Shown here piece after piece: positions 10,788 through 31,048 of a stretch of DNA of 41,575 bases. Position 1 is the first letter of the stretch; each line of letters opens with the position of its first letter. Location: NCBI GenBank assembly GCA_045593485.1, contig JAZNWS010000157.1, positions 1-41,575 on the forward strand, written 5' to 3'. The translations under genes and the position numbers were made by a program. A model generated the notes under the pieces. That model searched no databases. It worked only from the letters and a program-made list of their open reading frames with translations, and had not been told where the DNA came from. Source of the stretch: Eubacteriales bacterium. Its GTDB lineage: Bacteria; Bacillota; Clostridia; Oscillospirales; CAG-272.

Positions 10788-10804
10788 TAAGCGGGAGAGA
10801 TAGA

Positions 10805-11734: not shown

Positions 11735-11753
11735 AAATCCAACTTGAAAATTC

Positions 11754-11850
11754 TGATTACAATCTGTAGAACAATAAAAAAATTCGAGAAAGTTTTTTGG
11801 AAAGGCGCGGAAAACCCTTTTTACAAAAAAAGGTTTTCCGCACATTCTCC
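11754..11850 (+). repeat. copy A of a ~100-nt intergenic repeat with a long A/T-centred hairpin
   Basis: tgattacaa...ttcgagaaagttttttggaaaggcgcggaaaaccctttttacaaaaaaaggttttccgcacattctcc. It aligns by eye at roughly 75-80% identity with the reverse complement of 14221-14323. Confidence 0.65.
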
Positions 11851-11867
11851 AATAGAAAGGAAACACC

Positions 11868-13169: not shown

Positions 13170-13178
13170 AGGGACGTT

Positions 13179-14219: not shown

Positions 14220-14220
14220 T

Positions 14221-14323
14221 GGGAGAGGAATATGCGGGAAACCTTTTTTGTAAAAAAGGGTTCCCACACCCTTCCAAAAAACTTTATCGCGAAAAAAATA
14301 TTAGAGACCCCATTTTGTAATCA
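14221..14323 (-). repeat. copy B (inverted) of the ~100-nt intergenic repeat
   Basis: The reverse complement reads tgattacaa...ttcgcgataaagttttttggaagggtgtgggaacccttttttacaaaaaaggtttcccgcatattcctctccc. The hairpin is retained with one G-U pair and one mismatch. Confidence 0.65.
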
Positions 14324-14362
14324 AAGATATAGTATAGTACATATTCAAAACAGAGGTGTACT

Positions 14363-15115
14363 ATGCGAAAAAACAAGACGAAAAAAAGCAACAAAATCTC
14401 CAAAAAGCTGATAATCGCGGCAATTATATCCACCGTCGTATTTGCAGCAGTAAGCGCGGCGGTATTCTACACGCTTTTTTACCGCAAGTCCGACACCTAC
14501 GAGCTTATGTTTCCCGACCTTGTGGGATCGTATGAGCAGGACATAAAAGCCGATTCGAGATTCAGCATAGAAAAAAATTATATTTTTTCGGACATATACC
14601 CCAAGGGCGTTGTAATATCCCAAAGTCCAAACGGACTTTCGGCTCAAAAAATACCGAGCGGCACGAAACCTGTGCTGACAGTCAACATAAGTCTTGGCAG
14701 AGAAAGCTTTTCTATGCCCGACCTGACAGGGAGCTCGCTCGCCGAGGCGCAGAGAAGGATTCGTCAGATGCAATGCTCCGCGCGGATAGTGAGAATATAT
14801 GACGACTCGGATGAATTTTTTCAGGAAACCGTCACGGGAAGCTATCCCGAGGCAAATAGGACGGTATCTGTCGGTGATGAGGTTATAATTTATATAATAA
14901 CGCCTCGCAAATCGCCGAAAATTTTGCTCCCCAACCTTGTTGGACTTGATGTTGATGATGCGATAGACCGTCTCGCAGGTCTTGGCATAAATTACGAAAT
15001 AACAGAAGGCTTTGACTCAAACGCGGCGGAGTGGGAGGTTATAACGCAATCCCCTGCGCCAAATAATTATATAGATAAAACTACCACCGTGACAATAACG
15101 GTAAATTCAGATTAA
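14363..15115 (+). CDS. membrane-anchored PASTA-domain protein without kinase domain
   Basis: 250 aa. Basic N-tail, one TM segment (LIIAAIISTVVFAAVSAAVFYTLFY), then three PASTA-like repeats that begin FPDLVG, MPDLTG and LPNLVG. AGAGGTG RBS. Confidence 0.8.
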   Translation: MRKNKTKKSNKISKKLIIAAIISTVVFAAVSAAVFYTLFYRKSDTYELMFPDLVGSYEQDIKADSRFSIEKNYIFSDIYPKGVVISQSPNGLSAQKIPSGTKPVLTVNISLGRESFSMPDLTGSSLAEAQRRIRQMQCSARIVRIYDDSDEFFQETVTGSYPEANRTVSVGDEVIIYIITPRKSPKILLPNLVGLDVDDAIDRLAGLGINYEITEGFDSNAAEWEVITQSPAPNNYIDKTTTVTITVNSD

Positions 15116-15126
15116 GAGAGGTATCC

Positions 15127-16035
15127 ATGGCGGAAAGCTCAAAAGGAAGGATAATCCACGGCGTCGGCGGACTTTACACCGTCCGTCTGCCCGAGGCGGA
15201 CGTAAAATGCAGAGCCAGAGGCTCTTTCAGACACGCAAATATTACCCCGCTTGTGGGGGATTTTGTAAATATAGGAATTGACGACAACGGAAACGCCGTC
15301 ATAGACGAGATATGCGAGCGCAAAAACTCGCTTATCCGCCCTCCGCTTGCCAATATTGACTATGTTTTTGTCACTATGGCGGCGGCGTCGCCAAAGCCAA
15401 TGCTTGATATGACGGACAAGCTGTGCGCCATACTCGAGCACAACTATATCACCCCCGTGATAGTAGTAGGCAAATGCGAGCTTGACAGGGAATATGCTGA
15501 GCAGATAAAGAAAATATACTCAAAGGCGGGATATGACGTGTTTATACTGTCTTGCGCGACGGGAGAGGGAATAGACGAGATACAAAAATTCGTAAGCGAA
15601 AATCTCTCGGGCAAGCTTTCAGCGTTTGCAGGCGCGTCGGGCGTTGGAAAATCCACGTTGCTCAACAAGCTTTTCCCCGATCTTGAGCTTGGCACGGGCG
15701 AGATAAGCCGAAAGGTTGAGCGAGGCAAGCATACGACTCGCGCCGTGACTCTTTTTGAGGTCTGCGGCAAGGACGGATACCTTGCCGACACCCCGGGCTT
15801 TTCAATGCTGGATTTTGACCGCTTTGATTTTTTTGATATTGAAAATTTACCCAACGTTTTCCCCGAGATACACGAGTGTGTTGGGCTTTGCAAATATACA
15901 AAATGTACTCATACAAAAGAGGAAGGGTGCGCGGTGCTGAAAAAGGTGAGGCGCGGTGAAATGGCAAAATCCAGACATGAAAGCTACATAGAACTCTACA
16001 ATGTGTTGAAAAATAAACAAAAGTGGAATAAATAA
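15127..16035 (+). CDS. rsgA: ribosome small-subunit-dependent GTPase A
   Basis: 302 aa. GASGVGKSTLLN, DTPGF and C-terminal zinc knuckle CKYTKCTHTKEEGC. Confidence 0.9.
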   Translation: MAESSKGRIIHGVGGLYTVRLPEADVKCRARGSFRHANITPLVGDFVNIGIDDNGNAVIDEICERKNSLIRPPLANIDYVFVTMAAASPKPMLDMTDKLCAILEHNYITPVIVVGKCELDREYAEQIKKIYSKAGYDVFILSCATGEGIDEIQKFVSENLSGKLSAFAGASGVGKSTLLNKLFPDLELGTGEISRKVERGKHTTRAVTLFEVCGKDGYLADTPGFSMLDFDRFDFFDIENLPNVFPEIHECVGLCKYTKCTHTKEEGCAVLKKVRRGEMAKSRHESYIELYNVLKNKQKWNK

Positions 16036-16036
16036 T

Positions 16037-16663
16037 ATGAAAAGAGCATTTATATACACGGGCGGAGAGATATTTCCGCAGTACATAACAGAAAGACCCG
16101 AGGAGGATGACATAGTCATCGCGGCGGACTCGGGATATGAAAGCGCCAAGAAAATGGGAGTCAATGTCGATATTCTGATAGGCGATTTTGATTCACTCAA
16201 GGGCGAGCTTCCAAAGGACGTGCCTGAAATATTACAGGTGCCCGTAAAAAAGGACCTGACCGACACGCAGCTTGCGGTCGAAAAGGCTGTTGAGAAGGGA
16301 GCTTGCGAGATATTTATCATAGGTTCAACTTCGGGAAGGCTTGATCACACGCTTTCCACCCTCGCAATTCTTGAAAATCTCTGGGAAAGACACAAAAGAG
16401 GGTATATAATCAGCGGACAAAACAGAATTTCCTATATAAAAAACACCAATCACATAGTTTTGAGAAGTGATTATAAGTATTTTTCGCTTATCGCGACGGA
16501 TGTTGCCAAGGGAGTCAGCATTGAGGGCGCGGTGTATCCCCTCAAAAACAAGACGCTTGACAGAAAGCTTCAATATGCAGTATCCAATCAGATAGAGGGC
16601 AACGCAGCGCTTGTCACAGTCAAAAAAGGCGGACTTTACATTATAGAATCCAGGGATATTTAA
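16037..16663 (+). CDS. thiN: thiamine diphosphokinase
   Basis: 208 aa. IAADSG, LIGDFDS, KDLTDTQLA and GRLDHTL. Confidence 0.85.
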   Translation: MKRAFIYTGGEIFPQYITERPEEDDIVIAADSGYESAKKMGVNVDILIGDFDSLKGELPKDVPEILQVPVKKDLTDTQLAVEKAVEKGACEIFIIGSTSGRLDHTLSTLAILENLWERHKRGYIISGQNRISYIKNTNHIVLRSDYKYFSLIATDVAKGVSIEGAVYPLKNKTLDRKLQYAVSNQIEGNAALVTVKKGGLYIIESRDI

Positions 16664-16863
16664 GGGCAAAACCCATATATTTGCGCAGCATTTAACAAAA
16701 ACTCATCCTTTAGCATAATATATCAGTGAATAGAACTGCTATGGAGGTAGAGTATGAAGATAGTTCTTGTCCGCGCGCCGAGTATAGTTTCGCCCATATT
16801 GCGTAAAATTTTTAAAATAAAGAAAGAAAAACCCCCAAAATAAGCAATTTTATTGGAGAAAAA

Positions 16864-18849
16864 ATGAAGGATAACAGATTTCTTCCCGTAAATGCAGAGG
16901 AGATGAGGGAGCTTGGCTGGGATGCGCCTGACTTTGTTTACGTAAGCGGTGACGCATATGTTGACCACCCCACGTTTGGTGCGGCAATAATCACGAGAGT
17001 CCTTGAAGATAAAGGATTTCGTGTGGCTATGCTCTCTCAGCCTGACTATAAGTCCTGCGAGGACTTCAAGCGGTTTGGCAGACCTCGTCTTGGCTTTCTC
17101 GTCAGCGCGGGAAATATAGATTCCATGGTGGCGCACTACACAGCCGCCAAAAGAAAAAGAAATAACGACTATTACTCCCCCGGCGGCAAGGCGGGCAAGC
17201 GCCCTGACCGTGCGGTCATAGTCTATTCCAACAGAATACGCGAGGCGTATGGTGACGTGCCGATAATTCTTGGCGGTCTTGAGGCGTCGCTCCGCCGCTT
17301 TGCGCACTATGATTATTGGGACAATAAGGTGCGCCGCTCGGTGCTTGTTGACAGCCGCGCGGATATTCTTACGTACGGAATGGGAGAAAATATACTTATT
17401 CGAATAGCAGAGCTGCTTGATAAAGGTGTTCCCGTCAAGAAAATACGTGACGTGCGAGGCACGGTGTATCTTTGCTCGCCTGAGGACAAGGTGAATTTTC
17501 CCGTTGCGGCAACATTTGATTACAATATATTAAAGGAAGATAAGCGAGAATATGCTCGCGCCTTTGGCGTGCAGTATAAAAATCAGGATTCCATTAACGG
17601 ACAAGCCATTTGCGAGATATACGACAACAAAATGCTCGTACAAAATCCTCCTATGCCGCCGCTTGAGCGCGAGGAGCTTGATCACGTTTACAGTTTGCCA
17701 TACGCGAGGACGTATCATCCTATGTACGAAAAGGATGGCGGCGTTCCCGCTATTGAGGAGGTTCAATTCTCGATAACTCACAACAGAGGCTGCTTTGGCG
17801 CTTGTAATTTCTGCGCGCTGGCGTTCCATCAGGGAAGGACCGTGCGCTCGCGCAGTATAGAGTCCTGCGTGAGAGAAGCGGAAATTATAACAAAAATGCC
17901 TACGTTTAAGGGATATATACACGACGTCGGAGGACCGACGGCGAATTTCCGTTATCCGTCCTGCGACAAGCAGCTTAAGGACGGAGTCTGCCCGAGCAGA
18001 AAATGTCTTGCTCCCAGCCCCTGCAAAAATTTGAAGGTGGATCACACGGAATATATAAAGCTGATAGAGGAGATCGAAAAGATCCCCAAGGTGAAAAAGG
18101 TATTTATCCGTTCGGGAATTCGCTTTGATTACCTTATGTGTGACAAGAATGACGCATTCTTCAGAAAGCTTGTCCGCGATAACGTTTCGGGTCAGCTCAA
18201 GGTTGCCCCAGAGCATTGCTCAAGCCCTGTTCTTCGCTGTATGGGCAAGCCTGATTTCGAGGTCTATCAGGGCTTCCGCAAAAAATATTTTGATCTGTGT
18301 CACGAGGCGGGTAAGGAGCAGTATCTTGTACCTTATCTTATGTCGAGTCACCCTGGCTCAACCTTGCAGGATGCGGTAAATCTTGCGGTCTGCCTTAAGC
18401 GCGACAACTATGCGCCCGAGCAGGTCCAGGACTATTATCCTACACCGGGCACGGCGTCAACGGTTATGTATTATACGGGAATAAATCCGCTTGATATGAA
18501 GCCTGTTTACGTAGCCTCGGACTACCATGAAAAGCAGCTCCAGAGAGCGCTTTTACAGTTCAACCGTCCGCAAAACGCCGCGCTTGTACGCGAAGCGCTC
18601 AGATGCGCGGGCAGGGAGGATCTTATAGGCTTTGGAAAGGATTGCCTTGTCCGTCCCGAGGGCAGCGCGAAGGGATCCGATAACGCTCGTCGCGACAAGG
18701 GCGCCGGCAAAAAGGATGCTGCCGGGCAAAACGGAAGACGAGCGGACAGCACGCGCAAATCCTCCTCGGACAGCCTACGCGCAGGGCAGCATAGGAACAA
18801 AAAAGCCTTGCCAAAAGCTAAATCAAGTCAAGCAAAACGCAAAAGATAA
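16864..18849 (+). CDS. ygiQ: YgiQ-family (UPF0313) radical SAM protein with basic low-complexity C-terminal tail
   Basis: 661 aa. N-terminal GWDAPDFVYVSGDAYVDHPTFG and radical SAM CxxxCxxC (RGCFGACNFC). The last ~65 aa are K/R/S/G-rich. Confidence 0.9.
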   Translation: MKDNRFLPVNAEEMRELGWDAPDFVYVSGDAYVDHPTFGAAIITRVLEDKGFRVAMLSQPDYKSCEDFKRFGRPRLGFLVSAGNIDSMVAHYTAAKRKRNNDYYSPGGKAGKRPDRAVIVYSNRIREAYGDVPIILGGLEASLRRFAHYDYWDNKVRRSVLVDSRADILTYGMGENILIRIAELLDKGVPVKKIRDVRGTVYLCSPEDKVNFPVAATFDYNILKEDKREYARAFGVQYKNQDSINGQAICEIYDNKMLVQNPPMPPLEREELDHVYSLPYARTYHPMYEKDGGVPAIEEVQFSITHNRGCFGACNFCALAFHQGRTVRSRSIESCVREAEIITKMPTFKGYIHDVGGPTANFRYPSCDKQLKDGVCPSRKCLAPSPCKNLKVDHTEYIKLIEEIEKIPKVKKVFIRSGIRFDYLMCDKNDAFFRKLVRDNVSGQLKVAPEHCSSPVLRCMGKPDFEVYQGFRKKYFDLCHEAGKEQYLVPYLMSSHPGSTLQDAVNLAVCLKRDNYAPEQVQDYYPTPGTASTVMYYTGINPLDMKPVYVASDYHEKQLQRALLQFNRPQNAALVREALRCAGREDLIGFGKDCLVRPEGSAKGSDNARRDKGAGKKDAAGQNGRRADSTRKSSSDSLRAGQHRNKKALPKAKSSQAKRKR

Positions 18850-18859
18850 TTGAGCTTTG

Positions 18860-18889
18860 GCCCGCCGATTTGAGTCGGCGGGCTTTTTT
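18860..18889 (+). terminator. intrinsic terminator after ygiQ
   Basis: gcccgccga / tcggcgggc hairpin followed by TTTTTT. Confidence 0.7.
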
Positions 18890-18976
18890 GTCGAAAAATA
18901 ATGTATTTTTTGGAATATATTATAATTTATAGGAAAAATTTTCATTAAAAATAATGCAAAAATCTGTTTTAAGTGC

Positions 18977-19005
18977 TTGACAAGTCAAATGCTTTGTGCT
19001 ATACT
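18977..19005 (+). promoter_or_regulatory. sigma-A promoter with extended -10 (TTGACA-17-TGnTATACT) for the giant lipoprotein gene
   Basis: ttgaca at 18977-18982, a spacer ending in tgc, and tatact at 19000-19005. It sits ~110 nt upstream of the ATG at 19115. Confidence 0.55.
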
Positions 19006-19114
19006 TGTAAATAAGGTAGAATCTCTCAAAGTGGGCTAACTATCCCTATTTTAGAGATAACTTAAAAAAATAATGTTTTTTGGAAGAACCCAAAAACAAA
19101 ACATGGAGGTATTT

Positions 19115-22100
19115 ATGAACCGTAATTTCGCGAAAATTTCGGTGGTCATCGTTGCCCTCGTGCTTGCTCTTGCTTTCTGCTTGACAGGCTGTAAGGTTGA
19201 CGATGTTGCCGCGGACCTCGGCACAACAAAGGACGAGGTTTCCGCTAACAAGGCTGATGCCGCGAAGGCGCTTGAAGAGGCAGTAAAAGCTCTTGAAGCG
19301 AAGATTGCCGCAAACGAAGCAGATTGTGCTGCTGAGATTGCTGCTTTGAACGCAGCTCTCGAAGAAGCAAAGACTTCCGGTGCGGTTACCGTTGCAGACC
19401 TTGAGGCTGCAGAGAAGGCTCTTAACGATGCTATCGCAGCAGTAAGAGCAAGCCTCGACGCAGCTAAGAAGGATCTTAGTGACAAGATCACAGCAAACGA
19501 TGCAAAGATCAATGCTGAAGTAGCAGCTCTTAACAAGGCTATTGCAAATGCAGAAGCAGCACTTAAGGCAGCAGCTGCTGCTGACAAGGCAGCTCTTGAG
19601 TCTTCTCTTGCAGCAGCTAAGGCAGAGCTTGAAGCAGCTGTTGAAGCACTTAAGGCTGATATGGATAAGCTCACAGAGTTTGTAAACTCTGCAGTAGCAG
19701 ATCTTAAGGCTGACATCGCAGCAGAGAAGAAGGATATCACAGATTCCATCGTAGCTCTCGAGAACGCTCTCTTGATCGCAAAGGGCGAGGCAGCAGATGC
19801 AGACGCAGCTGTTAAGGCAGAGCTTGAGCAGGCTATCGCAGAAGCAACCAAGGCTATCGTTGAGGTTCTTGAAATTGCTGACGCAGAGCTTGAGGAAGAG
19901 CTCAGAGAGGCTATAGATGGTCTTGCAGAGTCCATCACAGCTCTTGAAGAGGCTCTCGGCATCTACGAGGCAACAACCGAAAAGGTTATTGCAGTATGGA
20001 ATGAGATCTATGAGATCTACGGTGAGTGGAATGCGCTTTGCGTAGAGCACAACGTAGACGCAAAGGTTAAGGCTCCTGTTGACAAGGCATACCAGCTCGT
20101 TCAGGTTCTCCTTGGCAGAGCAGTTAACGCTGAAGAGGTTGATGCTGTAAAGGCAGACTTCATAGCAGTTGTAGCTGGCGCTCAGGTTGAAGTTCCTACA
20201 CTTAACAATCTCAATAAGATTTATGAAGCTCTTGTTTCCGCTGAGGAAGAGCTTGCAAACGAAGAGACAGACCTTGCCGCTGTAAGAACAACTCTTCTTG
20301 GCGTAAAGGCTGAGCTCGCAACAGTTACTCTCGACGTAATTCTCGTTGACGGTGTAGTTGTTGATCTCTCCGAAAAGTATGATGAAGTTTGCGACGTTTA
20401 CAACGCAGAGAGAGTTGCAGCTGTATATGCGCTTATCGACAGCGTTGCAGCAGAGATCGTCGCAGTTGACAATTACAATGCTATCTGGGATGCACAGAAT
20501 AAGGCATTTGACGTAGAGCCCGTTATCGACGCTCTCGTTGCTGATGTAGAAATCGCAGTTGACGTTGAGGACACTGACGCTCTCTACGACGCATACAACA
20601 GCCTCTGCGCTCTTGTTCCCAACCAGCTCCTTGACATTGCCGTTAACGTTTACCTTGCAGGCGGTGATATTGAGCGTGCAGAAATCTGCCTCGAGGATGC
20701 AGTATACGAAATCGGTTGTCTCCCTGCAGAGACTGAGGGTCTCGCAGAGCTCAATGCAAAGGCAGTTGAGGTTGAAGCGGCTATCGCTTCCGCTTACATC
20801 GAGCTTGCGCTCGTAGCTGTTGAAAACGCATCCGATATCGAAGCTCTTAAGAAGGCTATCGCTGATATCGACGCTAACCTTGCAGAAGCAAAGGCTGATA
20901 TCTTTGCTATGGTAGACGGTGAGGCAAAGGAAGCAGTTATAGCTCAGTACGTAGCAGCTCAGCAGGCTAAGCTTGCTAAGATGGAAGCAGTAGCTTACGT
21001 AGCACTTGACGCAGCTGTTGATCTCAAGGACGTAGAAGTAGTTGAAAGCTACAAGAGCGAGATCGGTATGGCTATTCTCGCAGTTATGATGGACGAGGTT
21101 GGAGTTAACGTAGACGACTTCGGCATGACATACAGCAACCTTTCTATGGCAGCAGCTGAAAAGGTTCTCGCATTCGCAGCAGCAGCTATCGAAAACGCTG
21201 AGACCGCAGATGCAGTTGCAGCAGTTGCAGAAACTCTCGCAGCAGCAAAGGCTAAGATCGACGTTCTCGCAGCAGACGCAGTTCTCGCAGCAGACGCAGC
21301 AAGCGCAGAGAGAATCGCAGCTATGACAGCTAAGTACGAACAGTACACAGGTCTTGTTGCTCTCGTTGAAGAGGGTAAGGCTATTGCAAACATCATTGCA
21401 GGTCTTAAGGCTGACGCTATCGTAGGTACAAAGACAGAATCCGAGATAATCACAGAATACAACGTTGCAGCAAAGGCTTGGGTAGAGACTCTCGATAAGC
21501 TCTACACCTTTGAGACAAAGACAGGCTACGAAACTCTCAGAGCTCTCATCAACGAGGCTAAGGCAGAGGAACTTATAGCTGCATTCGAGGCTAAGATCGC
21601 TAACCTCGTAGAAATCGCTACAGATCTTATTAACAAGATCAAGGCAATCAACGCAAAGGTTACCGAGGACGGTTACACCTTCGCATTGATCACAGATATT
21701 GAGGCTGTAAAGGCTGCCTTCAGAACTTGGGAGCAGAACGCAACCGACGCTGACGGTGTAGGCTTCGTTATCGCTTACGTTTCCGACGGTGAGTACACTA
21801 ACGAAAACCTCAATACAGTTATCGTTACTATCCAGACAGAATACAACGCATTCGTTAAGGGTGCTCAGGACGCATGGACCAACTGCTACACAGACTACTA
21901 CAAGTCTCTTACAGTTGAGAACCTCGTTTGGAACGAAACAGCTCTTACAGCAGTAAGAGAGTGGTTCACAAAGTACGGCACAGAGGCAGCTGATTATGAG
22001 ATCGCAGGTGTTGGTACATCTGTTGAGGAAGCAGCTCTCGTAGTACTTGAAGAAAAGCTTGCAGCTCTTAAGGCAGAGCGCAAGGCTCTCGTTGAGAAGT

Positions 22101-24160
22101 TTGCAGCAGACGCAGCAGCTCTCCAGGAGAGAATTGAGGCACTTGGATTTATTACAACAGATTCCGCAGAAACAGTTAAGGCTCTCAGAGCTGACGTTGA
22201 TGCTTGGAACAAGGCTGTTGTTGACAATGCAATTGATTTCACAGCAGAATTCGGCAAGGCAGTAGTTATCGACGAGACAAAGCTCGTAGAGGCTGAGGCT
22301 AAGCTCGTTGACCTTGCAGCTCAGATCGAAAACATCAAGGCTCTCATCGAGGCTCTTGAGATTCCCACTATCGGTACAGACATCGCAGCTCCTTACTTTG
22401 CTGACGTAGCAGCTAAGGATGCATACGTTGCACAGGTTAAGGCTATCACTGATGCAATCGCTAAGTTCAATACAGACAACGATGGCAACAGAGGCTGCAT
22501 CTCTGATGAAGAGCTTGCAAAGGTAGTTGAGGCTGATTCCGATCTCTTCGTTGCTAAGTATGAGGCAGCTCTCAACGCTTACAACACATATGCAAACGCA
22601 GTTGCAGGTGTTGCAAACGACACAGTTCTCGCAAAGCTCGAGGCATATCTCGTAGCTGTAAGAAATGAAATCAACGCAGTAGGCGTAGCTAGAGCTACAT
22701 ACGCTGAAACAATGGCTGCAATTCTTGCTCCTTACAATGCAAGAGTTGAGGCAACAGTAGCAGTTTACAACGAGTATGTTGAGGCTTGCACAGGTGTTGC
22801 AAACGATACACTTCTCGCTAAGTTCGAGGCATTCCTTAAGGAAGCTGTAGCAGCAATTGCTGGTGCAGAGGTTGAGGGTATCGACGCTATCGTTGAGCTC
22901 TACACTCTTAAGTTTGAGACCGCTGTAGTAGTTTACAATGCATACACAGAGACAACTAACGGCGTTTCTGACGCAGAGATCCTCGCAATTATGGATACAT
23001 ATTTCAATGAGGCTCTCAGAGAAATCTCCACAGCTAACCTTAACACACCTAACTACAAGGCATACATCGCTCAGATCGGCACAAATGCTGAGAGCAAGTT
23101 CAATGACATAAAGGAAGGCAACGGCCTTCCTGTATGTCAGGAGCATACATATGATAACGCTTGCGACCCCGTTTGTAACGTTTGTTACTACACACGCGTT
23201 CCCGCAGATCACGAATACGACTTCGATTGTGACGTAGACTGTAACGTTTGCGGCGCAGTTCGCGTAGTTGAATGTTCTGATGGCGAGGTTCACGACGGCG
23301 TTTGTGAGTGCGGCAAGAAGGTATATGGTACTCTTGAAGCTCCCCTTACCACAACAGGCGCATACACAGCAAACACAGGCCTTGCTAAGGATGAATTTTC
23401 CGCAGAAAAGTACTATGTAACAGGTGTTGTTACAGAAATCGGCTCAACAGGCAAATACTACAGAAACGTTTACATTACCGACGGTACAACAAAGTTCTTT
23501 ATTTACTCCATCAATATGGGTGACGGTATTGACGGCTTTGGCGTTGGTGATACTATTACAGCATACGGTTATATCCAGAATTACTATGGTGATACCATTG
23601 AGATGACAGGTAAAAACGGTGATTATCCTTATGCACTTGTTGTTGTAAAGCACACCTGCGTAGCGGATGGTGAGGCAACCTGTACAAAGGCTGCTAGATG
23701 TACTGCTTGCGGCACAGTAATGACGGAAGCTCTTGGCCACACAACCGATGATGGTACATGTGAAAGATGCGGCGAGGAAATCAGTGCTGAAAGTACAGTT
23801 GGTCAGACCTTGGTACTTGAAATCACTAAGGAAGACTTCACTAGCGTAAGCTATGCTGACAATAACAAAGCACATACCGAAAATGGTTATACCTACACAT
23901 CTAACCAGGTAATGAATCAGCAGGGAAATATGCAGTGGCAGAAGAACAAGGGTTATATTACCATAACCTCCGCTGATATAGTTAAGGTAGAAATGAAGGT
24001 TTCCGCTGGTACATTTACCGTAACAGTTGGCGGTTCTACCGTTCATGGAACAACCGTTGATGGTGTGACAACATACGATCTTACCGGTGCAACAGGCGAA
24101 ATTAAGATTTCTGTTGGTGGTGCAACTGGAAAGGTTGATTACGTTAAATTCTATAAGTAA
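19115..24160 (+). CDS. giant (1,681 aa) alanine-rich predicted coiled-coil lipoprotein with Cys-rich/OB-like C-terminal region; function unknown
   Basis: GGAGG lies 7 nt before the ATG at 19115. MNRNFAKISVVIVALVLALAFCLTGC is a signal peptide plus lipobox. A strong promoter lies upstream and a terminator downstream. The in-frame upstream ATGs at 19073 and 19103 lack an RBS. Confidence 0.85.
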   Translation: MNRNFAKISVVIVALVLALAFCLTGCKVDDVAADLGTTKDEVSANKADAAKALEEAVKALEAKIAANEADCAAEIAALNAALEEAKTSGAVTVADLEAAEKALNDAIAAVRASLDAAKKDLSDKITANDAKINAEVAALNKAIANAEAALKAAAAADKAALESSLAAAKAELEAAVEALKADMDKLTEFVNSAVADLKADIAAEKKDITDSIVALENALLIAKGEAADADAAVKAELEQAIAEATKAIVEVLEIADAELEEELREAIDGLAESITALEEALGIYEATTEKVIAVWNEIYEIYGEWNALCVEHNVDAKVKAPVDKAYQLVQVLLGRAVNAEEVDAVKADFIAVVAGAQVEVPTLNNLNKIYEALVSAEEELANEETDLAAVRTTLLGVKAELATVTLDVILVDGVVVDLSEKYDEVCDVYNAERVAAVYALIDSVAAEIVAVDNYNAIWDAQNKAFDVEPVIDALVADVEIAVDVEDTDALYDAYNSLCALVPNQLLDIAVNVYLAGGDIERAEICLEDAVYEIGCLPAETEGLAELNAKAVEVEAAIASAYIELALVAVENASDIEALKKAIADIDANLAEAKADIFAMVDGEAKEAVIAQYVAAQQAKLAKMEAVAYVALDAAVDLKDVEVVESYKSEIGMAILAVMMDEVGVNVDDFGMTYSNLSMAAAEKVLAFAAAAIENAETADAVAAVAETLAAAKAKIDVLAADAVLAADAASAERIAAMTAKYEQYTGLVALVEEGKAIANIIAGLKADAIVGTKTESEIITEYNVAAKAWVETLDKLYTFETKTGYETLRALINEAKAEELIAAFEAKIANLVEIATDLINKIKAINAKVTEDGYTFALITDIEAVKAAFRTWEQNATDADGVGFVIAYVSDGEYTNENLNTVIVTIQTEYNAFVKGAQDAWTNCYTDYYKSLTVENLVWNETALTAVREWFTKYGTEAADYEIAGVGTSVEEAALVVLEEKLAALKAERKALVEKFAADAAALQERIEALGFITTDSAETVKALRADVDAWNKAVVDNAIDFTAEFGKAVVIDETKLVEAEAKLVDLAAQIENIKALIEALEIPTIGTDIAAPYFADVAAKDAYVAQVKAITDAIAKFNTDNDGNRGCISDEELAKVVEADSDLFVAKYEAALNAYNTYANAVAGVANDTVLAKLEAYLVAVRNEINAVGVARATYAETMAAILAPYNARVEATVAVYNEYVEACTGVANDTLLAKFEAFLKEAVAAIAGAEVEGIDAIVELYTLKFETAVVVYNAYTETTNGVSDAEILAIMDTYFNEALREISTANLNTPNYKAYIAQIGTNAESKFNDIKEGNGLPVCQEHTYDNACDPVCNVCYYTRVPADHEYDFDCDVDCNVCGAVRVVECSDGEVHDGVCECGKKVYGTLEAPLTTTGAYTANTGLAKDEFSAEKYYVTGVVTEIGSTGKYYRNVYITDGTTKFFIYSINMGDGIDGFGVGDTITAYGYIQNYYGDTIEMTGKNGDYPYALVVVKHTCVADGEATCTKAARCTACGTVMTEALGHTTDDGTCERCGEEISAESTVGQTLVLEITKEDFTSVSYADNNKAHTENGYTYTSNQVMNQQGNMQWQKNKGYITITSADIVKVEMKVSAGTFTVTVGGSTVHGTTVDGVTTYDLTGATGEIKISVGGATGKVDYVKFYK

Positions 24161-24170
24161 TAATAATTCA

Positions 24171-24205
24171 AAACCCGCACCCCTCGGGGTGCGGGTTTTA
24201 TTTTA
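24171..24205 (+). terminator. intrinsic terminator after giant gene
   Basis: aaacccgcacccc / ggggtgcgggttt hairpin followed by a T-run. Confidence 0.75.
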
Positions 24206-24206
24206 T

Positions 24207-24246
24207 AAAAAAGCGCGGAGCTTTATTAAAGCTCCGCGCTTTTTTG
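24207..24246. terminator. bidirectional hairpin terminator (serves the minus-strand acidic protein gene)
   Basis: aaaaaagcgcggagc tttattaaa gctccgcgctttttt. An A-run and a T-run flank a 10-bp GC-rich stem. Confidence 0.7.
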
Positions 24247-24254
24247 TTTTTTAA

Positions 24255-24731
24255 TTATTCCTCAACGGGTGTTACGTCGTCGTCCTCAATTATGCAGCCG
24301 AGGGTTGCGCCGCAAGCGGGGCACATGAGCTCCTCTGCGTTTACGGAATCGTCAAAGCAAACTGTCTCGCCGCAGGAGGGGCAAACTATCTCGTAGTATT
24401 CCTCGTCCTCGTAGAGATCACAGTCATCGCAATCCTCGCACTCGTCGCAGAGATCGCAGCATTCGCAATCGCCGTCGCACTCATCCCAATCGTCATCCTC
24501 GTCGTCGAGGTCGAGAAGAACCTCCTCAACGTCGCCAAGGTCCTCGTCAAGCTCTTCGCAGTAGTCTGCAAGCTCAGCAATATCGTACTCAACGTCGTCG
24601 ATCTCCTCAGCCATCTCTGTGCAAAGCTCGATGAGAGCCTTGATGAGCTTTGCTTCAGCCGTGTCCTTCTTATCAAGGTCAAGACCCTCTGCAAGACCCT
24701 TTATATAAGCGCATCTTTCTGTAAGTGTCAT
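24255..24731 (-). CDS. highly acidic Cys-cluster protein with C-terminal zinc ribbon (possibly the clostridial CD1247-N-terminal-domain family)
   Basis: 158 aa. Helical N-terminus (ERCAYIKGLAEGLDLD), a long D/E run, CDGDCECCDLCDECEDCDDC, then CPSC-x16-CPAC. The family name is from memory only. Confidence 0.7.
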   Translation of the reverse strand: MTLTERCAYIKGLAEGLDLDKKDTAEAKLIKALIELCTEMAEEIDDVEYDIAELADYCEELDEDLGDVEEVLLDLDDEDDDWDECDGDCECCDLCDECEDCDDCDLYEDEEYYEIVCPSCGETVCFDDSVNAEELMCPACGATLGCIIEDDDVTPVEE

Positions 24732-24755
24732 TTTTTTATACCATCCTTTTTTATT

Positions 24756-24793
24756 TTAAAAACGGGAAATCCACGTATAATATGGATTTCCCG
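24756..24793 (-). terminator. intrinsic terminator after efp
   Basis: Minus strand: cgggaaatcca tattatacg tggatttcccg followed by TTTTT. Confidence 0.65.
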
Positions 24794-24817
24794 AGTTTTT
24801 CAGCTTTTAGCTTTAAA

Positions 24818-25375
24818 TTAAGCTCTGGAGAGATACTGACCGTCGCGAGTATCAATCTTGAGAACGTCACCAACGTTGATGAAGAGCGGAACCTTGATTA
24901 CCGCGCCTGTCTCAAGAGTTGCGGGCTTGAGTGTGTTTGTAGCAGTGTTGCCTGCAAAGCCGGGGTCTGTCTCTGTAACCTCAAGCTCAACGAATGTGGG
25001 AGGCTCAACTCCGAATACGTTGCCCTTGTAGGAGATGATCTTACACATCATTTCTTCCTTAACGAACTTGAAAGCGTCACCGAGCTTGTCTCTGTTAAGA
25101 GGAAGCATATCGAATGTCTCCATATCCATGAAGTAGTAAAGGTCACCGTCAGTGTAGGAGTACTGCATGTCCTTTCTTTCGATATACGCGTTTTCATACT
25201 TGTCTGTGGGGCTGAAAGTCTTTTCAACAACCGCACCTGTGATTACGTTCTTAAGCTTCGTACGAACGAAAGCGGCACCCTTACCGGGCTTAACGTGCTG
25301 GAACTCGATAACCTGGAATACGTTACCGTCCATTTCAAATGTAATGCCATTCTTAAAATCGCCGGCTACTACCAT
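24818..25375 (-). CDS. efp: elongation factor P
   Basis: 185 aa. [23 protein letters not shown], with full-length EF-P pattern. Confidence 0.97.
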
Positions 25376-25430
25376 TGTTTTATACCTCCAAAATTAGATA
25401 CTTATTTTTTTACGTATATATTTACATTTC

Positions 25431-25459
25431 ATTATATCACGGCAGAAAAAAATTGTCAA
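25431..25459 (-). promoter_or_regulatory. consensus sigma-A promoter with extended -10 for efp (TTGACA-17-TGnTATAAT)
   Basis: Minus strand: ttgaca atttttttctgccgtga tataat. Confidence 0.6.
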
Positions 25460-25487
25460 TAGGGCAATTGGATAAAGCCTAAATTTT

Positions 25488-26036
25488 TTATACCTTTTGG
25501 ACGTCTATGAGCGCCCCGTCAAGCGAGAATATGCAAAATTCACTCTTTTCATATATCGCGTACGACTTGGGATTGCCACCCTTTGGCAGACTCACCGAGC
25601 CGGGATTAAGGCAGAGAATGCCGTCCTTTTCCACAAAGCCGAGCAGGTGCGTGTGACCATAGAGGAATACCGAGCCCTCGGGCAACGGAGGGAGGTTTTC
25701 GGGGTTATATTTGTGTCCATGCGAGAGATATATAGATAGGTCCTTCTCACTATCGTATATCCAACCGAAGTCGGAAAGCACGGGGAAGGATAGCACCATC
25801 CCGTCGACCTCAGCCTCGCAGTTTCCCTTGACGCACAAGAGCTTATCGGACACCTTGTTGAGCATTTCAATAACCTTTTTAGGCGCGTAATTTTCAGGCA
25901 GGTCATTTCTCGGTCCGTGGTAGAGAATGTCTCCAAGCAATACTATTTTTTCCACTCCGCGAGAGGTTGCCTCGTCGAGTATTTTCTGACAGCAGACTGC
26001 GTCGCCGTGTATATCCGATGCTATGAGTAGTTTCAT
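25488..26036 (-). CDS. YfcE-type metallophosphoesterase (MJ0936 family phosphodiesterase)
   Basis: 182 aa. SDIHGD, LGDILYHGPRN, KGNCE and YGHTH. Confidence 0.85.
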   Translation of the reverse strand: MKLLIASDIHGDAVCCQKILDEATSRGVEKIVLLGDILYHGPRNDLPENYAPKKVIEMLNKVSDKLLCVKGNCEAEVDGMVLSFPVLSDFGWIYDSEKDLSIYLSHGHKYNPENLPPLPEGSVFLYGHTHLLGFVEKDGILCLNPGSVSLPKGGNPKSYAIYEKSEFCIFSLDGALIDVQKV

Positions 26037-26069
26037 ATATTTACCGCCTTACTTGTTTTTCTTACTTGT

Positions 26070-26098
26070 ATTATAACATAAAATTTCACACATTTCAA
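26070..26098 (-). promoter_or_regulatory. sigma-A promoter (TTGAAA-17-TGnTATAAT) for the phosphodiesterase gene
   Basis: Minus strand: ttgaaa tgtgtgaaattttatgt tataat. Confidence 0.5.
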
Positions 26099-26177
26099 CA
26101 AGCCAAGGCTAAGTTTTGCTTTGCGGCAGGGGTTTTTATTTTTTCCAAAGTTTTCAAAAAGTTTATACGTAATCCCC

Positions 26178-26206
26178 TTGAAAAAGAAGTGCGAAAATGG
26201 TAAAAT
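26178..26206 (+). promoter_or_regulatory. sigma-A promoter (TTGAAA-17-TGnTAAAAT) for MBOAT-DHHW operon
   Basis: ttgaaa at 26178-26183, a spacer ending in tgg, and taaaat at 26201-26206. Confidence 0.45.
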
Positions 26207-26254
26207 AATTATAGGCTATAAGCCACAATTTTTCAGACGGTCAGGGCGAGCATA

Positions 26255-27676
26255 ATGGTATTTTCAAGTATGTTTTTTGTTCTTGTTTTCCTCGTTTTGT
26301 GCTACGGAGTTTATCTTCTCGCAAAAACGATGAAGCAGAAAAATATAGTTCTTTTAGTTTCATCACTTATATTTTACGCATGGGGCGGTCCGGTCCTGTG
26401 CCTTTTGCTCTGCCTTGAAACTTTTATTTGCTATATTGGTGCGAGAATAATTGACTTCACGAAAGAGAAAAAGCAGCGCCTTGCGCACACGTGGGTGACG
26501 GTGCTTGTTTGTCTTGGGCTTCTTGTTTTCTTCAAATACACGGGATTTTTCGCGAGCAATTTTATAAGTCTTTTCCACCTTGATGCAACAGCCCCCTCAA
26601 TAGTCCTTCCAATAGGTATATCTTTTTACACCTTCCAGCTTATATCTTACGTTATTGATGTTTACCGTAAGGAAACAAAAGCGCAGAAAAAATATTGGAT
26701 GCTCCTGCTTTACGCGTCGCTTTTCCATCAGTGTATCGCGGGTCCTATCGTGCGCTATTCGGACGTAAACGAGGAGCTTGAAAGCAGACAGATGACGCTT
26801 GAGGGCATAAGCCAGGGCTTTACGAGATTTTCTGTGGGACTTGCAAAAAAGGCGGTGCTGGCTAACGGCTGCGCGGCTATTGCAGATACGCTTCTTAAGC
26901 TTGAAGGACTTGAGAGCCAGTCCTCGCTCGGCATAATTCTCGGTGTTTTTGCCTATGCGCTGCAGCTTTATCTTGACTTTTCCGCATACTCTGATATGGC
27001 AATAGGCATGGGTCTTATGGTCGGATTGCACTACAAGGAAAACTTCAATTATCCTTACGTGGCGCATTCGGTGACTGACTTCTGGCGTCGTTGGCATATG
27101 TCGCTGTCCTCGTTTTTCCGTGATTACGTTTACATACCGCTCGGCGGAAACAGGGTTTCCGTTCCAAGACATATGTTAAACCTCTTTATCGTCTGGGCGT
27201 TGACGGGATTCTGGCACGGCGCGTCGTGGAATTTCGTGCTCTGGGGAATATTCTATTTTGTGTTCCTGGCGCTTGAAAAGTTCGTGTTGAGATTCAAAAA
27301 TCAGCCTAATGCCATCACAAGAATACCCAGAACACTCTATACGCTCGTCGTGGTATTCTTTGGCACTATGCTTTTCAAATTTACAAGTCTTTCGGCCTTT
27401 GGCACTGCATTTGTTGGCATTTTCTGCGGAAACGGCAACAGCTTTTCCAATATGCAGGTCAAGAGCGAGTTTATGGGCAATATATTCTTCCTTATCGTAT
27501 GCGCGCTTGCCTGCACGCCGATAGTTCCTTATGTATCAAGATTTCTTGAGAAAAACAAGAGCACAAACAAGGTAAGGCTCGTCATTTCTGCGATAGCTCC
27601 CGCCGCGCTTATAATACTGTCGCTTTTGGCTCTTGCGGGAGACAGCTACAACCCCTTTATCTATTTCCAATTCTGA
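26255..27676 (+). CDS. MBOAT-family membrane O-acyltransferase (AlgI/DltB/PatA-like)
   Basis: 473 aa and polytopic. Conserved WRRWHMSLSSFFRDYVYIPLGGNR block with the catalytic His. Confidence 0.9.
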   Translation: MVFSSMFFVLVFLVLCYGVYLLAKTMKQKNIVLLVSSLIFYAWGGPVLCLLLCLETFICYIGARIIDFTKEKKQRLAHTWVTVLVCLGLLVFFKYTGFFASNFISLFHLDATAPSIVLPIGISFYTFQLISYVIDVYRKETKAQKKYWMLLLYASLFHQCIAGPIVRYSDVNEELESRQMTLEGISQGFTRFSVGLAKKAVLANGCAAIADTLLKLEGLESQSSLGIILGVFAYALQLYLDFSAYSDMAIGMGLMVGLHYKENFNYPYVAHSVTDFWRRWHMSLSSFFRDYVYIPLGGNRVSVPRHMLNLFIVWALTGFWHGASWNFVLWGIFYFVFLALEKFVLRFKNQPNAITRIPRTLYTLVVVFFGTMLFKFTSLSAFGTAFVGIFCGNGNSFSNMQVKSEFMGNIFFLIVCALACTPIVPYVSRFLEKNKSTNKVRLVISAIAPAALIILSLLALAGDSYNPFIYFQF

Positions 27677-27688
27677 TGGGTATATAAA

Positions 27689-28951
27689 ATGAAAGAAATA
27701 TTTAGCAAGGAAAACACACGTGGGTTCGAAAACAAGACCCACCTGATAAAAATAATATCCTCTACGGCGATCATTTGTGTTTTCGCCGTTGTTGGACTCT
27801 GCTTCTTTTTCAGACCGACGTACTCTGAAAACGAAAAGAGAAATCTTACCGAGTTCCCGAAATTCAGCTTTGAGTCATTTTTCTCGGGCGACTATTTTTC
27901 GCAGATAAGTCTGTGGTACTCCGACACGTATCCTTTGCGCGAGTCAATGATAAACGCAAACTCGGGTATTCAGTCGATGTACGGTGACCGCGAGGACCAG
28001 CTCATAATCCCGTCGGGAGGAAACACTACAATTGAGAACGGCGGCGCGGTTGAAAATTTCGGCGGAATCTGGATACAGAACGACACAAAGACCGCATACG
28101 AGATCTTTTACAACAGACAGTCTGTAAACGATAGATATATTGCCGCGATAAACCAGGCGGCGCACAAGCTTGGCAAGGACGTGAACGTCTATAATATGGT
28201 CGTGCCGCTTCATTATACCTATAAGCTGACCGATGAGCAGATAGCCCAGGTGGGCGCGTCGGACTGTGTGGATGTTATGAACTATATTTACAGCGGGCTT
28301 GACAAGAGTGTGACCTCGGTAAATATACATGATCAGCTTCTCTCGCACAAGGACGAATACATATATTTCAGAACCGACCACCATTGGACAGCTCGCGGCG
28401 CGTATTATGCCTACGTTGCCTTTTGTGAGGAGAAGGGAATTAAGCCCACACCCCTCGAGGACTATACAAAGCTTGAGTTTGATAACTTCCTTGGCACGTT
28501 CTATTCGCAGTCGGGGCAGAATAAGACACTCAAGAATAATCCCGATTACGTCGAGGCATTTATTCCCAACGGAACTAATCTGTTGACCGCGATCACGCAG
28601 GACGGACGCGAAACGGAATATGCTATAGTTTATAAGAAAGCGGACAAATACAGCGCGGCTAATAAGTATATGTGCTTTATCGGCGGAGATAATCCCGTGT
28701 CCACTATCCACAACGACAATATAAACGACGGCTCATCCATAGTCGTTATAAAGGAGTCGTACGGAAACGCCTTCGTGCCGTTTATTGTGGACTCGTACGA
28801 GTATGTTTACGTAATAGACTACAGATATTTTGACGGTAATCTTGTTGACTTCGTTGAGGACAACGGCATAAAAGACGTGCTTTTCCTCAACTATATCTCC
28901 ACCACCTCTACCGAGTCAAAGATCGGTCAGATAGAGGACATTATAGGATAA
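27689..28951 (+). CDS. DHHW-family protein (AlgJ/AlgX/PatB-like extracytoplasmic acyltransferase partner)
   Basis: 420 aa. N-terminal TM anchor and the eponymous FRTDHHWTARGAYYAY motif. It starts 13 nt after the MBOAT gene. Confidence 0.85.
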   Translation: MKEIFSKENTRGFENKTHLIKIISSTAIICVFAVVGLCFFFRPTYSENEKRNLTEFPKFSFESFFSGDYFSQISLWYSDTYPLRESMINANSGIQSMYGDREDQLIIPSGGNTTIENGGAVENFGGIWIQNDTKTAYEIFYNRQSVNDRYIAAINQAAHKLGKDVNVYNMVVPLHYTYKLTDEQIAQVGASDCVDVMNYIYSGLDKSVTSVNIHDQLLSHKDEYIYFRTDHHWTARGAYYAYVAFCEEKGIKPTPLEDYTKLEFDNFLGTFYSQSGQNKTLKNNPDYVEAFIPNGTNLLTAITQDGRETEYAIVYKKADKYSAANKYMCFIGGDNPVSTIHNDNINDGSSIVVIKESYGNAFVPFIVDSYEYVYVIDYRYFDGNLVDFVEDNGIKDVLFLNYISTTSTESKIGQIEDIIG

Positions 28952-28953
28952 AT

Positions 28954-28989
28954 AAAGAGCATCTCACAATTTGTGAGATGCTCTTTTTC
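28954..28989. terminator. bidirectional terminator between the convergent DHHW and folT-folC genes
   Basis: aaagagcatctcaca attt gtgagatgctcttt followed by a T-run. Confidence 0.7.
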
Positions 28990-30813: not shown

Positions 30814-30821
30814 ATAAAAAT

Positions 30822-30852
30822 ACCTCCTCTCGCCATATGGCAGAAAGGAGGT
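30822..30852 (-). promoter_or_regulatory. SD-sequestering hairpin (expression platform of the THF riboswitch)
   Basis: Minus strand: ACCUCCUUUCUGCC AUAU GGCGAGAGGAGGU. A ~13-bp stem whose 3' arm contains the folT GGAGG. Confidence 0.55.
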
Positions 30853-30877
30853 ATAGTAAGCCTCTTTGGGTGCCGTA

Positions 30878-30990
30878 TGAAGCGGGATGCAAAGCCGAGA
30901 CCGCATTGATGCGCTATATGTGCCATCAAAATTCGTCCGCAAGACAACTCCCCGTTCTCGCGGCACTTACGCCTTGACTTTTACTCTTCA
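30878..30990 (-). promoter_or_regulatory. THF (tetrahydrofolate, folT-motif) riboswitch aptamer
   Basis: Minus strand: UGAAGAGUAAAAGUCAAGGCGUAAGUGCCGCGAGAACGGGGAGUUGUCUUGCGGACGAA...UGCAUCCCGCUUCA. It shares the remembered hallmark blocks of the THF-I class (GAGAGUA, GCGU(U)AAGUG, the GGGA-containing P3 loop, ACGAA, the GCAUCC pseudoknot partner and P1 closure). It lies directly upstream of a folT-like gene. Confidence 0.7.
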
Positions 30991-31014
30991 AGATTTGTGG
31001 TTTTCCACAACATT

Positions 31015-31042
31015 ATTATATCACTATTTTTTTCAATGTCAA
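31015..31042 (-). promoter_or_regulatory. sigma-A promoter with extended -10 (TTGACA-16-TGnTATAAT) driving riboswitch-folT-folC
   Basis: Minus strand: ttgaca ttgaaaaaaatagtga tataat. It fits in the short gap after the birA stop. Confidence 0.5.
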
Positions 31043-31048
31043 TAGAAT

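Follow-up and report, generated by a model that had tools for sequence, protein, structure and literature searches.

The stretch of DNA analysed here (the window) comprises positions 1 to 41,575 of contig JAZNWS010000157.1 (assembly GCA_045593485.1), from an Eubacteriales bacterium of the GTDB lineage CAG-272, and the subject of this work is a giant gene found near its middle. The open reading frame (ORF) of this gene extends from 19073 to 24160 on the + strand, and its start is most likely the ATG at 19115, which gives a protein of 1,681 amino acids (aa) and is preceded by a GGAGG ribosome-binding site (RBS, 19106-19110) ending 5 nucleotides (nt) before it. The start given by the gene callers for the homologues is an upstream ATG (MEVFMNRNF...) that overlaps the RBS. 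The giant gene was always located between ygiQ and a small ORF matching CD1247_Nterm, followed by efp, and has this position in seven genomes. Its genomic context is one of housekeeping genes, with priA, def, fmt, rsmB, rlmN, rsgA and a thiamin pyrophosphokinase gene upstream and efp downstream. The preceding ygiQ-type radical-SAM gene ends with a terminator of its own at 18859-18884. Since the giant gene has its own terminators 3' of the stop and faces a convergent gene on that side, it can be considered a monocistronic unit. The features of the locus are collected in Table 1.

Six orthologous loci were compared and the promoter hardly varied among them, even in L007, where the N-terminus of the protein is only 42% identical. 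The transcription start was placed from the -10 box, and the 5' untranslated region (UTR) that begins there contains a 5'-proximal stem-loop (minimum free energy -22.4 kcal/mol, z = -2.3 versus shuffles), which was also nearly invariant across the orthologous loci and could be an mRNA-stabilising or regulatory element. No family or known cis-regulatory RNA matching the 5' UTR appeared in an Rfam scan, and a repeat search gave no convincing inverted repeat or invertible element around the promoter. Two A/T-rich 17-mers, AAAATAATGTATTTTTT (18895-18911) and AAAAAATAATGTTTTTT (19065-19081), lie on either side of the promoter with 153 nt between them; the repeat finder reported an inverted pair (76%), but the two can also be read as a direct repeat and are probably a chance pair in A/T-rich DNA. 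Regarding codon usage, the effective number of codons (Nc) of the giant gene was 36.1, versus 43-55 for most window genes, and its relative synonymous codon usage (RSCU) correlated with that of efp at 0.84, versus 0.13-0.57 for most of the others. The rate of synonymous substitution (dS) was low and similar to that of efp (0.15-0.30), versus 0.64-0.92 in ordinary neighbours. The codon bias, the low dS and the conserved promoter and 5' UTR suggest that the gene is probably very highly expressed. An initial annotation of this DNA had already pointed to a strong promoter with a GGAGG RBS and to an efp-like codon usage indicative of high expression. The 11/12 match of the promoter and the position of the RBS bear out the former, the usage itself was confirmed, and the expression drawn from it is probable.

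The protein starts with MNRNFAK (R3, K7), followed by 15 hydrophobic residues and then by LTGC, with the cysteine at position 26. The signal peptide with a lipobox that had been annotated is thus present and, in all 27 family members checked, the lipobox Cys was conserved. The signal peptide and the motif C-K-x-D-D-V-A-A-D-L were common to all family members. The pattern [LVI][ASTVI][GAS]C was matched by the window protein and 15 of 26 relatives, while in the remaining 11 position -3 is Met or Phe. Position -4 holds another Cys (C-L-T-G-C; window 19178-19192, aa 22-26), kept in almost the whole family. From its sequence, the N-terminus is most likely a membrane tether, by lipidation of Cys26. 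An alternative would be that the protein is not a lipoprotein but has an uncleaved signal-anchor or an SPase I signal peptide, so that it would be held by a transmembrane (TM) segment or released, e.g., as a secreted polymer-binding or matrix protein. Strict lipoprotein regular expressions (PS51257-like and G+LPP) found no match in the window protein and most relatives, as this alternative would have it, although the failure in the window protein was due only to the Cys at -4 (C22), and two relatives that lack this residue (P0032 and P0061) matched both strict patterns. Besides, L-T-G-C is a textbook lipobox core, the lengths of the n- and h-regions are typical, and the +1 Cys is invariant among members down to ~25% identity. 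We consider this alternative improbable.

A spacer and a helical body follow and make up most of the protein. As a whole the giant protein contains 19.1% Ala, 10.4% Val, 9.8% Glu and 0.8% Pro, and there are only 45 Gly and 10 Pro between aa 27 and 1340. The spacer (aa 27-283) is 31% Ala and has 0 Pro, with about three degenerate repeats of 62-65 aa (aa 61-122, 123-187 and 188-251). Its hydrophobic periodicity (aa 27-250) peaks at ~3.65 residues (11/3) and is not that of a heptad, which may indicate an arrangement as in apolipoprotein-like or right-handed helical assemblies. Repeats of the spacer type were also found in unrelated multidomain proteins (P0023-P0030), and in four of them (P0023-P0026) they directly precede a C-terminal TM anchor. 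The repeats are therefore adjacent to the membrane in both topologies, the best argument that this region could act as a wall-spanning spacer. The middle region (aa 284-724) was modelled by AlphaFold mostly with a predicted local distance difference test (pLDDT) of 85-95. It is followed by a core (aa 725-1215) that holds a W-x3-ATDxDGVGF motif (aa ~872-886) and invariant Trp, Tyr and Gly residues. Three copies of a repeat with the motif K.E..V.VYN.Y....V.ND..LAK.E.YL.EA...I start within the core and continue past it. A self-BLAST of the giant protein gave no internal repeats, all those described here having been defined by eye and from homologues.

The AlphaFold model of the body, obtained with the family alignment and spanning aa 281-1340 only, had a mean pLDDT of 82.8 and 77% helix, divided into ~42 helices of 4-39 residues with short loops. 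No sustained 3.5-residue signal was found in the hydrophobic periodicity beyond the spacer. A heptad coiled coil was considered for the whole body and discarded on account of this periodicity and of the helices of <=39 residues. As the model is broken into 42 helices, the body is better described as a chain of small helical bundles than as a single coiled coil. This modifies the initial annotation, which had described a helix-favouring region rich in Ala, Glu and Lys and low in Gly and Pro and had taken it as suggesting a very long alpha-helical or coiled-coil stalk of about 1,270 residues. The composition and the very long all-alpha character stand, the coiled coil does not. When the 1,060-aa body model was compared with the Protein Data Bank (PDB) by Foldseek, no match was found below E 1e-3, an elongated multi-domain model being a poor query; only generic helical-repeat and rod proteins appeared, with a template-modelling (TM) score <=0.26.

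The C-terminal region, or head, has a different composition. The last 341 aa of the protein, which ends in ...VDYVKFYK, are 6.7% Ala and contain 39 Gly, and 16 of the 26 Cys found in the mature form fall here. The AlphaFold model of aa 1335-1681, also obtained with the family alignment, had a mean pLDDT of 84. At the junction with the body there are two clear copies of a Cys-rich mini-repeat (aa 1344 and 1366) plus a degenerate third one, with a pLDDT of 44-74. No Pfam model matched the mini-repeat in the window protein. Many tandem copies of the HxYDxxCDxxCNxC(G) mini-repeat were seen in P0008-P0010, P0043 and P0044, and two of the proteins that carry it (P0043 and P0045) have precomputed dockerin Pfam matches. 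Next comes a beta-barrel for which Foldseek found in the PDB the N-terminal oligonucleotide/oligosaccharide-binding (OB) domains of lysyl-tRNA synthetases, RPA and CST (E ~1e-3, probability 1.0). The barrel had no Pfam match, and the head profile searched against the PDB retrieved a weak match to RPA2 (E 0.036). A second pair of Cys knuckles separates it from the terminal domain, and homologous knuckles in P0046-58 have precomputed Pfam C1_1 (PF00130) matches. The terminal domain is a beta-sandwich whose best Foldseek match in the PDB was a carbohydrate-binding module (CBM) of the Ruminococcus flavefaciens cellulosome (5fu5; E 4.9e-4, TMt 0.45), followed by a pectate-lyase CBM (8x8h; E 8e-4, TMt 0.52). 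Sequence profiles gave no CBM for it, either in the PDB or in Pfam. The same sandwich ends many other modular secreted proteins of Clostridia, with 49-71% identity. A sequence search of the PDB gave no match for the full protein and only matches with E >=0.004 for the head profile, among them RPA2 and a spurious match to a spike glycoprotein. The globular C-terminus rich in Cys, Gly, Tyr and Thr that had been annotated thus resolves into an OB barrel and a CBM-like sandwich with pLDDT >90, but it is not a family-wide feature, as will be seen below.

Two observations on the head stand apart. A 2,388-aa Bacteroidales protein (L002, 9926-17092, + strand) opens with a sandwich domain that is 43% identical to aa 1565-1672 and has, judging by eye, OB-like 'Y.V.G.V' segments further downstream. 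The sandwich, and possibly its combination with an OB segment, thus recurs across phyla in giant surface proteins. A phage origin of the head was also considered and rejected, given that Foldseek against viral structures returned only weak tail-fibre, lectin and OB matches and the gene context is one of housekeeping genes.

Table 1. Features of the giant gene and of the protein that it encodes (positions in the window).
Feature	Positions	Strand	Remarks
Sigma-70-type promoter, TTGACA-17-TATACT with extended TG	18977..19005	+	11/12 match, the best of the region
5' UTR of ~105 nt, with 5'-proximal stem-loop (~19014-19063) and GGAGG RBS (19106-19110)	19012..19114	+	
Coding sequence, 1,681-aa protein; mature ~176 kDa, pI 4.2	19115..24160	+	
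Signal peptide with lipobox L23-T-G-C26 (aa 1-26)	19115..19192	+	Canonical lipobox; Cys conserved
Membrane-proximal Ala-rich spacer (aa 27-283), opening with KVDDVAADL	19193..19963	+	
Variable middle helical region (aa 284-724), predicted short-helix bundles and one beta-hairpin (aa ~408-417)	19964..21286	+	
Conserved helical core (aa 725-1215), family-defining by sequence	21287..22759	+	Conserved in all members
Three helical repeat copies with 56-63 aa spacing (aa 1146-1320)	22550..23074	+	
Cys-rich mini-repeats H-x-Y-D-x-x-C-D-x-x-C-N-x-C at the body-head junction	23135..23314	+	Motif positions
Replaced cassette, head from aa ~1366 to the stop plus 3' terminators	23213..24254	+	No nt match in the closest genome (L001)
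OB-fold-like beta-barrel (aa ~1404-1514)	23324..23656	+	pLDDT 89-97
Second Cys-knuckle pair (C1515, C1523, C1529-x2-C1532, C1549-x2-C1552)	23657..23770	+	pLDDT 53-89
C-terminal CBM-like beta-sandwich (aa ~1564-1681)	23804..24157	+	pLDDT 84-97
Two intrinsic-terminator-like hairpins after the stop (24170-24199 and 24205-24247), the first bidirectional	24170..24247		

We have searched for relatives of the giant protein in several ways. The full protein compared with Pfam and NCBIfam at E up to 1 gave nothing above any curated cut-off, only sub-threshold coiled-coil noise (Lectin_N, CCDC90, TraP). The same databases revealed no SLH, LPXTG-type, cell-wall-binding or enzyme domain in it, neither SLH nor CWB2 was present in the query or the scanned homologues, and no known stalk or adhesive Pfam domain was detected, including FIVAR and GA at E up to 1. 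Pfam on six homologues gave sub-cut-off matches to Apolipoprotein and Baculo_PEP_C, in the Ala-rich part only. The OB domains that Pfam detected in P0040 differ from the one in the window. A word-indexed search identified 22 true relatives (P0001-P0022), plus proteins sharing only the Ala-rich repeat, and when the core (aa 725-1215) was run exhaustively by HMMER against 1.84 billion representative proteins, just 16 clusters (counted at 50% identity) were retrieved, three of which were shorter members of 809-949 aa. Family members range between 809 and 2,830 aa. Where the source is named they come from Clostridia, Oscillospiraceae and Eubacteriales metagenome-assembled genomes, and the related genomes are largely from ruminant hindguts. 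The earlier failure to assign the protein to any family, and to see in it any SLH, LPXTG, cell-wall-binding or enzyme motif, therefore holds against Pfam, NCBIfam and, for the family, the PDB as well. Judging from these searches, the giant protein belongs to a tiny, undescribed and lineage-restricted family of uncultured gut Clostridia.

The segments of the protein vary widely in length across the family. The spacer has 241-780 aa, the middle region 300-904 aa, the core ~440-490 aa (602 in the divergent P0022), the short helical repeats past aa 1215 (aa 1216-1340 here) 23-242 aa, and the head 0-1,328 aa. About half of the homologues (P0013-P0021 and P0059-61) end straight after the helical body and have no head; one of them (P0015) was confirmed to be complete on a 77-kb contig. 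The initial annotation had asked whether homologues keep a stalk-plus-head design, and the helical body is indeed shared, while the head is missing from about half of them. By this distribution, it is the helical body, especially aa 725-1215, that defines the family, the head being an optional and exchangeable add-on.

The window was compared with five related genomes. Most flanking proteins were 90-100% identical to those of the relatives (86-88% for yfcE), and within the giant protein the identities were 73-95% for the spacer, about 35-88% for the middle region, 49-94% for the core and 31-43% for the head. The closest genome, L001, carries an orthologue that is 80% identical and lacks the head cassette of the window. 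The two sequences aligned with 86-89% nt identity over 9100-23213 and 24255-33907 but not in between, and their heads were only 35% identical in a partial alignment. Since collinearity stops at 23213 and resumes at 24255, the whole head has been replaced together with the terminators. The breakpoint, at ~23213, falls inside the Cys mini-repeats. Other pairs of relatives tell the same story from different sides. P0003 and P0006 are 100% identical over 722 aa with heads that are 32% identical, while the heads of P0001 and P0005 are 71% identical with middle regions at 38%, and those of P0002 and P0007 69% identical with middle regions at 36%. These alignments argue that the segments of the giant gene reassort independently. 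The pairwise ratio of nonsynonymous to synonymous substitutions (dN/dS) was 0.18-0.46 for the giant gene versus 0.00-0.11 for its neighbours. Tandem Repeats Finder (TRF) detected only trivial repeats of 9-18 nt in the giant gene, without DNA-level tandem repeats or a slippage mechanism. In view of this, and of the lack of a convincing invertible promoter, the variation is to be attributed to allelic recombination rather than to phase variation. The gene would be vertically inherited at a fixed position of the core genome, homologous recombination would diversify and reshuffle its segments, and one breakpoint would be the Cys-repeat junction. Such a pattern would be expected of a molecule that is exposed and on which phages, host immunity or changing substrates exert pressure.

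The cassette-like replacement between strains brings in the possibility of an S-layer-like or shield coat, in which the body would self-associate via its core into a dense layer protecting against phage, bile or host factors, the head would be an accessory, and hypervariability would reflect evasion of phages or antibodies and not choice of ligand. The switching of slpA cassettes in Clostridium difficile resembles what we have found here. The giant gene shares with the Firmicute S-layer proteins (such as C. difficile SlpA) the strong monocistronic unit and the codon bias. The strong promoter, the long conserved 5' UTR with its 5' hairpin and the strong terminators are S-layer-like too, the product is acidic (pI 4.2), and about half of the family being headless also fits a coat. 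On the other hand, neither SLH, CWB2 nor any other S-layer anchoring or lattice domain was found with Pfam or NCBIfam, and an all-alpha elongated protein is atypical of the known Firmicute S-layers. Nothing found here speaks for self-assembly, and the proposal overlaps with the explanation that we favour below, from which it differs mainly in emphasis. We regard it as rather unlikely, though less so than the other alternatives.

The locus itself indicates how widespread the giant gene is. In sister lineages, whose ygiQ is ~82% identical, this gene is directly followed by the CD1247_Nterm ORF and efp, without the giant gene. We compared the intergenic cargo of the site between ygiQ and CD1247-efp across L010-L020. 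The site was empty in L010, L012, L014, L019 and L020, whereas L011 (12779-13438) had a 219-aa membrane protein, L015 (12232-14587) four ORFs, two of which, on inspection of the sequence by eye, may be an ABC-transporter-like pair, and L018 (12034-13213) several small ORFs. The intergenic site looks like an insertion hot spot. Because the sister lineages are empty there or carry unrelated small inserts, the giant gene is lineage-specific at an insertion-prone site.

This distribution bears on another explanation, that of an intramural scaffold or spacer, in which the protein would stay between membrane and peptidoglycan as a ruler or organiser, a giant analogue of Braun's lipoprotein (Lpp). 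Both would be lipid-anchored and alpha-helical, with a length that could set a distance in the envelope; the variable length of the helical rod, the invariant aromatic and Gly residues of the core, which could contact wall polymers, and the housekeeping gene neighbourhood agree with such a role. Lpp has 58 aa, forms a trimeric heptad coiled coil, belongs to diderm bacteria and is covalently linked to peptidoglycan. Neither its size nor its trimeric heptad coil, its diderm host or its peptidoglycan linkage was seen in the giant protein. Moreover, absence from the sister lineages indicates that it is not an essential part of the envelope, and an internal structural component would not usually diverge so fast or recombine into mosaics. 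The CBM-like and OB modules are shared with secreted multidomain proteins and argue for exposure, and proteins with related Cys repeats also carry dockerins. We give little credence to an intramural location.

Other genes of the window deserve a brief mention. The CD1247_Nterm ORF (24255-24731, - strand) codes for a very acidic protein of 158 aa (NCBIfam CD1247_Nterm, 71 bits) with a C-terminal CxxC...CxxC ribbon, is 97-98% conserved and has, with an Nc of 30.4, the strongest codon bias of the window (RSCU correlation with efp 0.80). A functional link between it and the giant gene was discarded, as the ORF remains beside efp in lineages that have no giant gene, and it is therefore tied to efp. 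An ORF of 915 aa (34023-36770, - strand) matched SpoIIE (TIGR02865) with 186.8 bits (the cut-off is 490.8) and may be a divergent sporulation phosphatase. Between rlmN and rsgA there is an ORF of 250 aa (14363-15115, + strand), 245-272 aa in relatives, in which Pfam found only PASTA repeats and no kinase domain was seen. The weak SpoIIE match and the PASTA-domain ORF suggest that the host is a monoderm spore former. Finally, a tetrahydrofolate (THF) riboswitch (RF01831, 67.5 bits) is located at 30878-30990 (- strand), at the 5' end of an ORF (28990-30966, - strand) that appears to be a fusion of the substrate-binding (S) component of a folate energy-coupling factor (ECF) transporter (FolT family, aa 62-217) and FolC (aa 257-653). 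As the riboswitch overlaps the listed GTG start, the true start of this ORF must be further downstream.

Taken together, the explanation that we favour, and to which we give about even chances of being right, is that the product of the giant gene is a helical protein, abundant and lipid-anchored, that forms a surface fibril or coat and has an optional and exchangeable ligand-binding tip. The N-terminus would tether an abundant acidic protein to the membrane of a monoderm gut Clostridium. The Ala-rich spacer (aa 27-283), of different length among relatives, would adjoin the membrane, and the chain of short-helix bundles (aa 284-1340) would run from there across the wall and past it, as a fibril or as an element of a coat. 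At its distal end there would be a module made up here of Cys-knuckle linkers, an OB-fold barrel and a CBM-like beta-sandwich, and the exchange of this tip would make the binding of a polymer (most likely a glycan) strain-specific. The membrane-tethered adhesin with stalk and distal head proposed in the initial annotation is retained in part: the lipobox tether and the globular distal region are borne out, the coiled coil is not, and the head is not what defines the family.

Several points weigh against this explanation. Lipidation, localisation and abundance are inferred, as are surface exposure, extended shape and ligand binding, and the strict lipoprotein patterns failed as described above. 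The body model had a predicted TM-score (pTM) of 0.45, which does not fix whether the shape is extended or folded back. Both confident head domains have the fold of known modules, i.e., the R. flavefaciens CBM (5fu5) and the OB folds of tRNA_anti-codon/BOF, but there is no membership of these families at the sequence level and the Foldseek values are marginal, so that the likeness is at the level of fold only (E ~5e-4 to 1e-3, TM 0.45-0.52). Half of the family is headless, so that ligand binding can be neither the ancestral function nor the core one. The mean dN/dS of the giant gene is <1, which does not demonstrate positive selection and is compatible with relaxed or heterogeneous constraint plus recombination.

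There are known systems with which the giant protein can be compared. Fibrillar adhesins have been defined by their large size, an adhesive region, a rod-like repetitive stalk and a surface anchor (PMC9210967). The giant protein resembles those such as M protein, antigen I/II and SasG/Aap in being very long, with what may be an elongated repetitive region on the side of the anchor, in its fast evolution, and in the putative binding region at the end away from the anchor. It differs in having an N-terminal lipobox instead of a C-terminal LPXTG or wall-binding domain, i.e., an inverted topology, in a stalk of short-helix bundles without Ig-like or Rib/SasG-type repeats or heptad coiled coil, and in the optional head. 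By analogy, it would work like a fibrillar adhesin while falling outside the definition, given its reversed topology and the lack of any anchor or stalk domain of a known type.

Ebh/Embp of staphylococci are giant surface proteins with rods of small alpha-helical FIVAR-GA bundles that are held in the membrane without sortase. The giant protein recalls them in general design, but it has no FIVAR/GA match, would be anchored by an N-terminal lipid instead of a C-terminal TM segment and has no near-identical tandem repeats. In the wall-less Mollicutes, the Vsa, Vlp and Vsp lipoproteins are lipid-anchored, abundant, size-variable and hypervariable, and have been proposed to act as shield and as modulators of adhesion. 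They vary via DNA tandem repeats and site-specific inversion, in contrast to the giant gene, which has neither DNA tandem repeats nor a convincing invertible promoter and varies by allelic recombination between genomes. Since the giant protein lacks the defining domains or mechanisms of each of these groups, we consider it a type of surface fibril or coat in an undescribed family.

What this analysis has added to the initial annotation is the helical-bundle architecture, the identity of the head domains, a family that is tiny and restricted to one lineage, and the modular hypervariability of a gene that keeps its locus and shows signs of very high expression. The organism is uncultured, the family has 16 clusters and all functional statements are inferred. 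A broader proposal, which we put forward tentatively and hold to be rather doubtful, is that a walled Gram-positive would here build its outermost layer in a way not recognised before, by means of a very abundant, lipid-anchored, all-alpha and wall-spanning modular display fibril in which spacer length, middle rod and tip are swapped independently between strains by recombination at a fixed site. This would make it, among lipoproteins, the counterpart of S-layer cassette switching as well as of the LPXTG fibrillar adhesins. For the curators of domain databases, the helical core, the membrane-proximal Ala-rich repeat, the HxYDxxCDxxCNxC mini-repeat and the terminal beta-sandwich are new families. 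If the explanation we favour is true, uncultured gut Clostridia would spend much of their translational effort on a surface molecule that is unseen by those databases, and they would combine a lipid anchor with a rod of helical bundles in place of the textbook sortase or SLH anchor and beta-rich stalk. Its exchangeable tips, with OB and CBM-like domains, would then be candidates for attaching individual strains to glycans of the diet or the host, and the modular mosaicism at a fixed locus would provide a natural marker of strain-level diversification, whether driven by phages, immunity or substrate, in ruminant and other gut communities.

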